Source: Escherichia coli (lineage in GTDB: Bacteria; Pseudomonadota; Gammaproteobacteria; Enterobacterales; Enterobacteriaceae). From it: a stretch of 64,000 nucleotides of DNA. Positions 846 to 51,966 of the stretch are shown here, in pieces. The position numbers were made by a program, and so were the translations under genes. Positions within the stretch are counted from its first letter, which is position 1. Every line of letters begins with the position of its first letter. The notes below the pieces were generated by a model. That model ran no database searches. It was not told the origin of the DNA and saw only the letters and a program-made list of their open reading frames with translations. The DNA is taken from NCBI RefSeq assembly GCF_001677475.2, contig NZ_CP015229.1. The stretch is one strand, 5' to 3'.

Positions 846-3536
<2,691 letters not shown>

Positions 3537-3579
3537 TTAAATTATCGCATTAAAAAAGCCGGCATTCGCCGGCTTCATC

Positions 3580-4374
3580 TTATTCGTCGTGCGAGATTAT
3601 CGCCGGGATGGTGTCATCCTTGCGTAGCGTCAAAATTTCGCAGCCGTTATCAGTCACCACAATAGTATGCTCGTATTGTGCAGACAAGCTGCGATCTTTG
3701 GTTTTTACCGTCCATCCATCTTTCATGGTGCGGATCTCTTTTTTACCCGCGTTGACCATTGGCTCGATGGTGAACGTCATCCCCGGTTTCAGCACGACGT
3801 TGGTTTCACGGGAGTCATAGTGCAGCACCTGCGGTTCTTCATGGAAGCCGCGACCAATACCGTGTCCACAATATTCACGAACGACGGAGAAGCCTTCTGC
3901 TTCGACAAACTTCTGAATCGCCGCACCGATTTCGCGCAGATTAATGCCAGGTTTTACCATGCCCAGCGCCAGGTACAGGCTTTCTTGCGTGATGCGGCAC
4001 AGACGTTCGCCCATGATGGTCGGCTTACCGACGATAAACATTTTCGATGTATCGCCGTGGAAACCATCTTTGATTACGGTGACATCAATGTTAACGATAT
4101 CGCCATCTTTCAGCAGCTTAGCATCGTCCGGAATACCGTGGCACACCACTTCATTAATAGAAATGCAAACGGATTTCGGATAGCCGTGATAGCCGAGGCA
4201 GGCAGAAACCGCGTGTTGTTCATTAACAATGTAATCATTACAGATGCGATCCAGCTCGCCGGTGCTGACGCCCGGTTTAACATACGGTTCGATCATCTCC
4301 AGCACTTCGGCAGCCAGTCGGCCAGCGACGCGCATTTTTTCGATATCTTCTGGGGTCTTGATTGAGATAGCCAT
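3580..4374 (-). CDS. map: Methionine aminopeptidase
   Basis: 264-aa ORF MAISIKTPEDIEKMRVAGRLAAEVLEMIEPYVKPGVSTGELDRICNDYIV...; classic E. coli Map. Confidence 0.95.
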   Translation of the reverse strand: MAISIKTPEDIEKMRVAGRLAAEVLEMIEPYVKPGVSTGELDRICNDYIVNEQHAVSACLGYHGYPKSVCISINEVVCHGIPDDAKLLKDGDIVNIDVTVIKDGFHGDTSKMFIVGKPTIMGERLCRITQESLYLALGMVKPGINLREIGAAIQKFVEAEGFSVVREYCGHGIGRGFHEEPQVLHYDSRETNVVLKPGMTFTIEPMVNAGKKEIRTMKDGWTVKTKDRSLSAQYEHTIVVTDNGCEILTLRKDDTIPAIISHDE

Positions 4375-30850: not shown

Positions 30851-30876
30851 GAAAGCCGGAGCATTCTCCGGCTTTC
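30851..30876. terminator. Bidirectional terminator hairpin between nlpE and yaeF
   Basis: gaaagccggag-cattc-tccggctttc perfect inverted repeat. Confidence 0.5.
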
Positions 30877-43628: not shown

Positions 43629-43705
43629 GGAGCGGTAGTTCAGTCGGTTAGAATACCTGCCTGTCACGCAGGGGGTCGCGGGTTCGAGTCCCGTCCGTTC
43701 CGCCA
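43629..43705 (+). tRNA. aspU: tRNA-Asp (anticodon GTC), distal tRNA of the rrn operon
   Basis: ggagcggtagttcagtcggttagaatacctgcctgtcacgcagggggtcgcgggttcgagtcccgtccgttccgcca, 77 nt. Confidence 0.95.
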
Positions 43706-43716
43706 CTTATTAAGAA

Positions 43717-43746
43717 GCCTCGAGTTAACGCTCGAGGTTTTTTTTC
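43717..43746 (+). terminator. rrn operon terminator
   Basis: cctcgag-ttaacg-ctcgagg followed by nine T. Confidence 0.65.
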
Positions 43747-43867
43747 GTCTGGATATCTATTATTGCCAGAATCGCAAAAATCCTCTGCGTTTTACGCTCT
43801 TTTTCCGCAACAGTCTGAAGCCCATAATCACCTCAGTTAACGAAAATAGCATTAAAAGAGGCATATT

Positions 43868-44671
43868 ATGGCTATCCCTGCATTTGGTTTAGGTACTTTC
43901 CGTCTGAAAGACGACGTTGTTATTTCATCTGTGAAAACGGCGCTTGAACTTGGTTATCGCGCAATTGATACCGCACAAATCTATGATAACGAAGCCGCAG
44001 TAGGTCAGGCGATTGCAGAAAGTGGCGTGCCACGTCATGAACTCTACATCACCACTAAAATCTGGATTGAAAATCTCAGCAAAGACAAATTGATCCCGAG
44101 TCTGAAAGAGAGCCTGCAAAAATTGCGTACCGATTATGTTGATCTGACGCTAATCCACTGGCCGTCACCAAACGATGAAGTCTCTGTTGAAGAGTTTATG
44201 CAGGCGCTGCTGGAAGCCAAAAAACAAGGGCTGACGCGTGAGATCGGTATTTCCAACTTCACGATCCCATTGATGGAAAAGGCGATTGCTGCTGTTGGCG
44301 CTGAAAACATCGCTACTAACCAGATTGAACTCTCTCCTTATCTGCAAAACCGTAAAGTGGTCGCCTGGGCTAAACAGCACGGCATCCATATTACTTCCTA
44401 TATGACGCTGGCGTATGGTAAGGCCCTGAAAGATGAGGTTATTGCTCGTATCGCAGCTAAACACAATGCGACTCCGGCACAAGTGATTCTGGCGTGGGCT
44501 ATGGGGGAAGGTTACTCGGTAATTCCTTCTTCTACTAGACGTGAAAACCTGGAGAGTAATCTTAAGGCACAAAATTTACAGCTTGATGCCGAAGATAAAA
44601 AAGCGATCGCCGCACTGGATTGCAACGACCGCCTGGTTAGCCCGGAAGGTCTGGCTCCTGAATGGGATTAA
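43868..44671 (+). CDS. dkgB: 2,5-diketo-D-gluconate reductase B (aldo-keto reductase)
   Basis: 267-aa [49 protein letters not shown]... Confidence 0.9.
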
Positions 44672-45582
44672 GCCTCTCTGACAGCTCCTTCGGGAGCTGT
44701 TTTTACATGCTCGCTAAGGAAATCGATAAAAGCCCGGATGCGCGTACTTACCGCACGGTCGCTGTAATAGACTGCACTAAATGGCATTTCCACTGGCAAC
44801 ACTTTATCTGCCATTAACTCCACCAATTCTCCGCGAGCGATTTCTCTGTCGATCATGTAGTCGGACAAACACGCAATCCCGTTGCCACTCAGGCAAAGCT
44901 GTTTCAGTGTTTCCCCACTATTGGATGACAAACCGTACTTCACCTCATGTAATTGTCCATCGCTACAGGCTATCGGCCAGGTATTGAGGGAAGCGGGTTC
45001 AGTGAATCCCAGGCAAACATGTTGCTTTAAATCGTCGAGCGTTTCTGGCTTCCCATAGAGGGAAATATAATCGGGGGAGGCGATAATTTTTCGATAACTG
45101 TTAAATAACGGTCTGGCACGTAAGCTGGAATCCGTTAACGTACCGGCGCGTATCGCAACATCCACTTTTCTTTCGATCAAATTAATAATCGTTTCAGAGG
45201 AGACAAGCGATAAAGTGACTTCCGGATAGCGTTCACGGAAAGGTTTAATTAACGGCATCAGGAAATGCAGCACCACGGGCGTCGCGGCATCGATGCGCAA
45301 CAGTCCACGCGGTGTATTACGCGTCTCCATAATTTCTGATTCTGCCGCTGCCATCTCCTGCAAAATTGACTGTACGCGACGAAAATAACGCTCGCCTTCT
45401 TCCGTTAGGCTAAGTTGTCGCGTGGTGCGATTAAGCAGGCTAACGCCAAGTTTCATCTCCAGCTTTTTCACCGCCCGGCTTACCGCTGAGTTTGCTTGCC
45501 CTAATTGTTCCGCTGCCCGGCTAAAGCTGCCGCTTTCGACGACCGAAACAAAAATGGCGAGTTCTTCCGACGTGGCTTTCAT
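44668..45582 (-). CDS. yafC: LysR-family transcriptional regulator YafC
   Basis: 304-aa [59 protein letters not shown] (HTH); convergent 4-nt overlap with dkgB. Confidence 0.85.
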
Positions 45583-45771
45583 TTTTGCTCCTGTTGCAAA
45601 ATAGATGAGATATTTTGAATTTATTTGTCATTAAACCATCAGGATGCGTGATATGTCATCCGATTTAATGTTCTCAATAATGAGCAAATTTCTGACCGGT
45701 GTAAGCACTTGCTTACATAACAATATACAATTGCTCGTTGAAAGAGTGAGCTAAAATCCCTATAACAGTAG

Positions 45772-47472: not shown

Positions 47473-47506
47473 AAAAAAGGCACCGGGGGAATCGGTGCCT
47501 TTTTAT
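47473..47506. terminator. Bidirectional terminator between yafE and mltD
   Basis: aaaaaaggcaccg-ggggaat-cggtgcctttttatt. Confidence 0.55.
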
Positions 47507-51925: not shown

Positions 51926-51966
51926 CCAATATTCAGAAAGCCCGAATCAGTAATGATTCGGGCTTT
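51926..51966 (+). terminator. aspV terminator
   Basis: gaaagcccgaatc-agtaat-gattcgggctttc followed by gtcgtttt. Confidence 0.65.

Follow-up and report, generated by a model that had tools for sequence, protein, structure and literature searches.

A conserved hairpin inside the 3′ coding end of yafC is a probable intrinsic terminator of the convergent gene dkgB in Escherichia coli

The genes dkgB and yafC of Escherichia coli converge and overlap at their stop codons, and a palindrome followed by a run of T residues lies within the last codons of yafC. The question raised by this arrangement is whether one stretch of DNA both terminates the transcription of dkgB and encodes the C-terminus of YafC and, if it does, which of these roles has been selected. 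We have examined the locus in a 64-kb window of E. coli DNA (the whole stretch analysed, 64,000 nucleotides, from whose first letter all positions are counted). The coordinates of the features are collected in Table 1.

The product of dkgB matches the Pfam family Aldo_ket_red (4.6e-55), and YafC matches HTH_1 and LysR_substrate, with the LysR_substrate match ending at residue 293. The 4-nt overlap of the two stop codons proposed in the initial annotation is confirmed by the sequence, the list of open reading frames and the RefSeq annotation, and a shorter yafC is ruled out for this sequence because there is no earlier in-frame stop. In K-12, the RefSeq annotation places dkgB at 229167–229970 and yafC at 229967–230881, with the identical overlap, and the two names are attached to both reading frames in essentially all complete E. 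coli genomes, K-12 included. The overlap recurs in nine of nine Escherichia sequences (seven loci, K-12 and the window); the two stops are separated by 6–47 nt in most other genera, with outliers to 123 nt. The gene order in the Escherichia neighbourhood is rrn (16S–tRNA–tRNA–23S–5S)–tRNA-Asp–dkgB–yafC–yafD. The Rfam matches of the region, to SSU, LSU and 5S rRNA, to a tRNA ending at 43702 and to StyR-44, are all upstream, and no Rfam family is matched at the hairpin site.

Table 1. Features of the dkgB–yafC junction in the window
Feature	Position	Strand	Remarks and evidence
dkgB CDS	43868..44671	+	Aldo/keto reductase, 267 aa; stop TAA 44669–44671; ORF list, Pfam, annotation
yafC CDS	44668..45582	-	LysR-type regulator, 304 aa; stop TAA is the reverse complement of 44668–44670
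dkgB/yafC stop-codon overlap, TTAA	44668..44671		4 nt; sequence and ORF list
Spacer GCCTCTCTG, dkgB stop to hairpin	44672..44680	+	9 nt; other strand encodes YafC R302-E303-A304
Hairpin 5′ arm ACAGCTCC	44681..44688	+	Sequence, fold, RNAalifold consensus, pair counts
Tetraloop TTCG (UUCG)	44689..44692	+	Opposite YafC residue 298
Hairpin 3′ arm GGAGCTGT	44693..44700	+	Sequence, fold, pair counts, RNAalifold
T run TTTTT (U-tract)	44700..44704	+	ACAT next; sequence
Predicted dkgB transcript 3′ end	~44703–44706	+	
YafC C-terminal tail K294–A304	44671..44703	-	11 residues, coded wholly by U-tract, hairpin and spacer

The core of the palindrome is a 7-bp stem in which CAGCTCC (44682–44688) pairs with GGAGCTG (44693–44699) across the TTCG loop (44689–44692). 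All seven pairs are Watson–Crick and five of them are G-C, giving a GC-rich stem-loop within the limits used here for an intrinsic terminator, a stem of about 5–14 bp and a loop of 3–8 nt. The stem grows to 8 bp with A44681–T44700 and to 9 bp with G44680·T44701; its free energy lies between −13.4 and −15.2 kcal/mol, and the RNAfold centroid is the 9-bp version, at −15.2 kcal/mol. The U-tract that follows has five U residues, at the short end of the usual range, and the hairpin begins 9 nt past the dkgB TAA, in the same orientation as dkgB. Hairpin and T run together span YafC codons 293–301 (V293–V301) of 304, the T run being read on the other strand as the A of T295, as K294 (AAA) and as the last base of V293. 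In the yafC sense, the palindrome is followed by CAGAGAGGCUUAAUCCC, without a U-tract, and terminator anatomy is found on the plus strand only. The initial annotation had ascribed a terminator-like shape to dkgB, and this is borne out by stem, tetraloop and TTTTT, all on the dkgB strand only. It had set the hairpin at 44682–44705 within the last yafC codons, a placement that proves exact except at its far end, 44705, which is one base past the T run.

We propose that the palindrome is the Rho-independent (intrinsic) terminator of dkgB, a prediction to which we assign a probability of about 0.85. Past the dkgB stop, the nascent RNA would fold into a GC-rich stem of 7–9 bp capped by a UUCG loop (44680/1 to 44700/1), and the U-tract at 44700–44704, directly after the stem, would allow the transcript to be released at about 44703–44706. 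The dkgB message would then have a 3′ untranslated region of about 35 nt, antisense to the last 12–13 codons of yafC (about 38 nt), and plus-strand transcription, from dkgB and from any read-through out of rrn–tRNA-Asp, would be kept from the body of yafC. The yafC frame, for its part, would continue through the A-run and the hairpin to a stop, with the terminator dictating an 11-residue tail.

Sites of this kind stand out from chance. A strict scan requiring at least seven Watson–Crick pairs, a dG of −11 or below and a T-rich tail returned seven sites when both strands of the 64-kb window were covered; the mean over 40 dinucleotide shuffles was 0.15. The hairpin site is not listed by a generic promoter and terminator scan of the window, probably because greedy, G-T-tolerant extension of the stem takes up two of the T residues and leaves four T residues in the tail window.

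To follow the pairing across species, we scanned for YafC in one genome per species, which gave 80 Enterobacteriaceae loci. Together with K-12 and the window, these yielded 68 sequences with a dkgB 3′ end and stop convergent to yafC, and the same hairpin is present in 49 of them, at a fixed place relative to the conserved ...FLSEH motif of YafC. Pairing was assessed in an alignment of 49 sequences (48 related loci and the window) from more than 15 genera; a fiftieth locus, from Cedecea davisae (L059), has the hairpin with an A to G change that gives a G·U pair and stands outside the alignment. The 7-bp core is paired in 329 of 329 cells of the alignment, compared with 27–55% in controls in which the 3′ partner was slid. 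Two of the pairs have changed on both sides, from U-A to C-G in five sequences and from C-G to U-A in one; a compensated stem of this kind, CAGCCCC/GGGGCTG, is found in Cedecea. Three species have U·G wobbles in the dkgB sense, and since these would be C·A mismatches in yafC-sense RNA, the structure is that of the dkgB-sense RNA. The RNAalifold consensus contains this helix alone. Covariation is limited in that four of the seven pairs never vary: the outer pairs (CAGC/GCTG) are invariant in 49 of 49 sequences, but they were fixed by the pattern with which sequences were selected and therefore carry no weight. In 40 of the 49 sequences, three or more T residues come directly after the stem, and T25 of the alignment is invariant; weaker U-tracts are seen in the C. 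freundii group (TCTTATA), in Cedecea and Siccibacter (TTCACAT) and in Dryocola (TGCACAT). Overall, the pairing is kept beyond what sequence conservation or coding explains, as is expected of a conserved RNA structure.

In E. coli itself, 5,418 genomes carry the 81-nt junction at an identity of 95% or more. The commonest version, K-12 included, differs from the window solely in its loop, which is TCCG. The stem is intact in the two most divergent full-length variants examined, and in one genome an IS4 element is inserted in the hairpin. The possibility of a dispersed repeat, REP or other, was rejected: the window contains one match at up to two mismatches, and the junction occurs at a median of one place per E. 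coli genome.

The yafC strand records the same constraint at its synonymous sites. Four four-fold-degenerate sites fall in the stem (in ACA, GCT, GGA and GCT) and are invariant in the 35 species that share the window's frame, whereas 0 of 90 such sites elsewhere in yafC are invariant and their mean diversity is 0.58. The loop varies freely (TTCG, TCCG, TGCG, TTTG, TTTC, TTCA, CCGC and TACG), and its changes alter the encoded YafC residue 298, which is E, G, A, K or R. The frame in which yafC is read across the hairpin is set by the length of the T run, five or four residues according to genus, and the identical 20 nt are translated as KTAPEGAV with T5 and as KQLPKEL* with T4. The T5 lineages are Escherichia, Citrobacter, Enterobacter, Lelliottia and Huaxiibacter, in which YafC ends with REA, KEG or a stop; the T4 lineages (...HVK-QLPKEL*) are Leclercia, Silvania, Klebsiella michiganensis, Yokenella, Cedecea, Buttiauxella, Dryocola, Siccibacter and 'E. 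pulveris'. A neighbour-joining tree built from the two flanking proteins shows two or more changes of frame state; being a midpoint-rooted gene tree, it is indicative only. The yafC stop falls in the loop of the hairpin (one genome), abuts the stem or lies 9 nt past it. Since the LysR_substrate match stops at residue 293, all 11 residues of the YafC tail come from reading the U-tract, hairpin and spacer in reverse; the domain-coding part of yafC ends beside the signal, and the frame therefore runs on to the next stop.

The hairpin also keeps company with dkgB. It is absent from nine of nine loci where no dkgB was found beside yafC, and the YafC tail there is unrelated; in all nine, YafC still ends with a ...FLSEH-like sequence. 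The tRNA-Asp terminator lies opposite yafC at five of these loci (two Salmonella enterica subspecies, Superficieibacter and others), and yafC is followed by a different sequence at the remaining four. In Salmonella arizonae, a remnant only is found, GCTGTTTTT / GCTGTTTTTAC. Among the lineages that have dkgB and lack this hairpin are Trabulsiella, Kosakonia, Shimwellia and most Kluyvera, and these mostly have a different hairpin in the intergenic slot after dkgB, often with a T-rich tail; the tail of the replacement hairpin runs into the yafC stop. Some hairpin occupies the post-dkgB slot at 64 of the 68 loci. The analysis thus establishes the structure, its strand asymmetry, its association with dkgB, and a conservation of both nucleotides and pairing that does not depend on the yafC frame.

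Because the pairing is preserved, the synonymous sites are frozen, one stretch of nucleotides serves two reading frames and the hairpin is absent where no adjacent dkgB was found, the sequence comparisons indicate that it is the dkgB-sense RNA structure that is under selection and that the YafC tail is a by-product of the hairpin. The earlier suggestion that the palindrome constrains the tail holds, with the constraint running from RNA structure to peptide: the stem is kept, the synonymous sites are frozen and two frames are used. The comparison it called for, of YafC C-terminal residues with the hairpin, finds the stem retained in 49 sequences with compensatory changes and the peptide variable.

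Other explanations for the conserved stem have to be weighed against termination. One that we consider unlikely is that the stem-loop protects a 3′ end generated elsewhere, dkgB transcription stopping further downstream, through Rho or by collision with yafC polymerases, and 3′-to-5′ exonucleases trimming the RNA back. This reading predicts conservation of the stem just as well, several lineages have a short or interrupted U-tract, the hairpin lies at a ribosome-occlusion distance in Escherichia, Cedecea, Buttiauxella and Dryocola (PMC4824070), and overlapping dkgB–yafC transcription has been reported (PMC12288877). A protective stem needs no T residues, yet at least three follow it in 40 of 49 sequences, with T25 invariant, and they are kept even though bases of the T run are free to vary in the yafC frame, synonymously or by residue. 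The anatomy, too, is that of a textbook intrinsic terminator. That the structure acts instead in yafC mRNA, by slowing ribosomes near the stop or by protecting the 3′ end, its resemblance to a plus-strand terminator being incidental, is highly improbable. All three wobble variants pair in the dkgB sense only and the conserved homopolymer is a U-tract in the dkgB sense only. As a palindrome, it can also form an 8-bp fold in yafC-sense RNA (the 61-nt stretch has an MFE of −18.3 kcal/mol, z −2.47). In every case the hairpin is at the extreme end of the yafC reading frame, but the position of the yafC stop relative to it varies, and it is absent in all nine yafC loci found without an adjacent dkgB.

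Scarcely credible, in our judgement, is any reading in which neither RNA has a role, whether the repeat is an operator bound as DNA by a dimeric protein, the YafC tail is selected as protein or the palindrome arose by chance. An operator would account for the perfect 8 + 8 inverted repeat with its 4-bp spacer and for outer base-pairs that are the same in 49 of 49 sequences, an invariance discounted above; the changes in the half-sites are, however, RNA-style compensations and G·U states that break DNA symmetry. With a YafC tail that is translated in two frames and falls outside the Pfam domain, protein-level selection cannot explain invariance of the nucleotides. Chance is excluded by the shuffle comparison and by the 20-nt palindrome pattern, which occurs once in the window against an expected 0.02.

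SEnd-seq work by Ju et al. in 2019 is said to have found bidirectional terminators between convergent genes. The dkgB hairpin resembles these in being a single palindrome at overlapping convergent 3′ ends that can fold in both transcripts. It differs in that the upstream flank, GCCTCTCTG, is not an A-tract and the yafC-sense 3′ flank, CAGAGAGGCUUAAUCCC, consequently has no U-tract; with the wobbles also directional, we take the dkgB hairpin to be unidirectional and reject the bidirectional reading. Termination of yafC at this hairpin would, moreover, remove the yafC stop codon. A collision model has been put forward for termination at convergent genes (bioRxiv 10.1101/2022.10.23.513370). Two further candidates were examined. 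A minus-strand hairpin within dkgB (44634..44601, dG −20.5, with a TTTTATC tail) was rejected as a conserved structure: 80% of cells are paired among 62 distinct sequences, several pairs are broken in 11–24 sequences, there are no compensatory changes and the T-tract is lost in many genera. This hairpin may act as a yafC terminator in Escherichia. Of 36 long spacers from other genera, 5 have a G-quadruplex motif on the yafC-sense strand, which is hence not conserved.

Compared with canonical E. coli intrinsic terminators, the predicted dkgB terminator has the expected GC-rich stem of 7–9 bp, 4-nt loop (C-UUCG-G), U-run and position after the stop codon, but it lies wholly inside a convergent coding sequence, is 8–10 nt from its own stop and has five U residues. 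It is most likely a terminator of the ordinary intrinsic type, with no new mechanism, whose position is unusually tight and serves two uses at once. What appears less usual is that the whole hairpin is in the convergent coding sequence, close to the stop of its own gene, and that the RNA signal rather than the peptide is selected.

That termination actually occurs here, with what efficiency, and that the dkgB 3′ end is at about 44703–44706 we infer from the sequence. No dkgB or yafC entries appear in the supplementary tables of the 3′-end and transcript-mapping data sets of Adams et al. 2021 (Term-seq), SMRT-Cappable-seq 2018 and TERMITe 2025, which may reflect low expression, and searches of the literature, one of them for the K-12 hairpin sequence in full texts, turned up no description of the hairpin in a paper or data set. 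The gene pair is among the 165 convergent excludons of E. coli MG1655 (ExcludonFinder Table 1, PMC12288877). This listing is compatible with some read-through, and overlapping transcription is expected because the coding sequences overlap. Like convergent excludons, dkgB and yafC have a 4-nt overlap between their coding sequences, and the 3′ untranslated region predicted for dkgB would be antisense to yafC. The excludon concept, however, is one of mutual regulation through a long antisense overlap, whereas the conserved element at dkgB–yafC would limit the overlap.

The distance from the dkgB stop to the hairpin is 8–10 nt in Escherichia and 27–42 nt in Citrobacter, Enterobacter, Leclercia and Klebsiella; similarly short spacings occur in Cedecea, Buttiauxella and Dryocola. 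Loss of spacer in Escherichia appears to have brought the hairpin to within 8–10 nt of the stop. In a reporter carrying the tR2 terminator, efficiency is near 0 a few base-pairs past a stop codon and about 0.9 beyond about 30 bp (PMC4824070), the loss near the stop being attributed to occlusion by the ribosome, with strong context effects (Li et al., NAR 2016, PMC4824070). On this scale, the Escherichia spacing falls in the strongly reduced range and that of 27–42 nt near the plateau reached above ~30 bp. The tR2 series is nevertheless a synthetic reporter with one phage terminator; a spacing of 18 nt gave ~0.8 in one series and 17 nt gave ~0.12 in another (PMC4824070), and with so strong a dependence on context these values cannot be used to estimate the efficiency at dkgB. 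At a distance of 8–10 nt, folding should be hindered by a ribosome pausing on the stop codon, so that termination may be partial or leaky under coupled translation, and the short U-tract and the short stop distance together may make the efficiency of the dkgB terminator in Escherichia modest.

A more tentative possibility, and in our view a doubtful one, is that the loss of ~25 nt of spacer in Escherichia placed the terminator in the footprint of the ribosome at the stop codon and created a translation-gated switch between the convergent genes. Coupled translation of dkgB would then block the hairpin and send polymerases antisense into yafC, and uncoupled or untranslated transcripts would terminate.

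For annotation, intrinsic termination at the hairpin would give dkgB a well-supported 3′ boundary, and YafC residues 294–304 should not be read as a functional motif. Sites of this kind are missed by terminator finders whose search is confined to intergenic regions or whose greedy stem extension runs into the U-tract. The junction offers a case in which one stretch of DNA serves two genes on opposite strands and the selected function can be identified: the hairpin is frozen, and the YafC tail drifts through loop substitutions, relocation of the stop and a one-base change of U-tract length that shifts the frame. Were termination gated by translation, the locus would provide a chromosomal test case for ribosome–polymerase coupling, which has so far been measured mainly on reporters, and an example of a protein tail, and even its reading frame, set by the terminator of the neighbouring gene.

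The consensus terminator scan of the window between 43000 and 46500, in which a tail was required to hold at least five T's in eight positions, probably overlooks hairpins whose stems can be extended into the T run by A-T or G-T pairs, because the tail left after such extension falls below this threshold. The predicted terminator hairpin of dkgB is probably one case missed in this way. Other terminator-like sites in the window are collected in the table, together with an insertion in a related locus. The terminator of tRNA-Asp is of importance here because dkgB lies just downstream of the rRNA operon.

Terminator-like sites in the window and the IS4 insertion at a related dkgB–yafC locus
Feature	Coordinates	Strand	Remarks
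Strong terminator directly 3' of tRNA-Asp	43713-43742	+	GCCTCGAG-TTAACG-CTCGAGG, then 8 T's
Terminator-like hairpin for yafC	44591-44634	minus	AGGCGGTCGTTGCA-ATCCAG-TGCGGCGATCGCTT, then TTTTATCTTC
Palindrome with T-rich tails	30855-30872	both	resembles bidirectional terminator
Palindrome with T-rich tails	47474-47504	both	resembles bidirectional terminator
Palindrome with T-rich tails	51940-51963	both	resembles bidirectional terminator
IS4 element, exactly in the predicted dkgB terminator hairpin	2540-3970 (locus L082)		E. coli strain 582, NZ_CP120568.1

The yafC-side hairpin begins 34 nt past the yafC stop codon and has 14 pairs, 4 of them G·U, with a dG of -20.5. It is situated within the 3' coding end of dkgB, so that the candidate stop signal of each gene would lie inside the coding sequence of the other. 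Comparison of 62 distinct sequences revealed pairing in only 80% of cells, no compensatory changes and the loss of the T-tract in many genera, and for these reasons we reject this hairpin as a conserved structure.

The long spacers (27–42 nt) that separate the dkgB stop codon from the hairpin at loci in the range L008–L066 of the comparison are rich in C and poor in G, with mean fractions of 0.40 and 0.10, respectively. The motifs CCCTCTGT and AACCCTC recur in them and are present too in Kluyvera loci that are without the dkgB hairpin; only GCCTCTCTG is left in the Escherichia spacer. A canonical G-quadruplex motif is found on the strand opposite the spacer in 5 of 36 spacers.

The 4-nt overlap of the dkgB and yafC stop codons has a second, independent occurrence in Citrobacter sp. 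R56 and NCU1 (L047 and L050). The hairpin at these loci, CGTGCGGGTGG-TAATG-CTACCCGCATG, likewise lies within the 3' end of yafC; it is distinct from the dkgB hairpin of the window, longer, and without a clear T-tract. At the Cedecea colo locus, where only a fragment of dkgB remains, two copies of the hairpin, ACAGCCCC-TGT-GGGGCTGT followed by TTTAG and a degenerate ACAGTTCC...GAAACTGT followed by TTTAC, flank some 100 nt of inserted sequence. In E. coli strain 582, the IS4 element, bordered by a 12-bp target duplication (CTCCTCCGGGAG), parts dkgB from its predicted terminator and alters the 3' end of yafC.

When the 1.9-kb dkgB–yafC region (43800–45700) was compared with 5,424 complete E. coli genomes, the best identity was 98.6%. 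The TTCG loop variant of the window (examined over 44650–44730) occurs in at most 6 of 5,418 genomes, yet no other loop is as frequent when the remaining genera are pooled. The window probably derives from a divergent Escherichia lineage.
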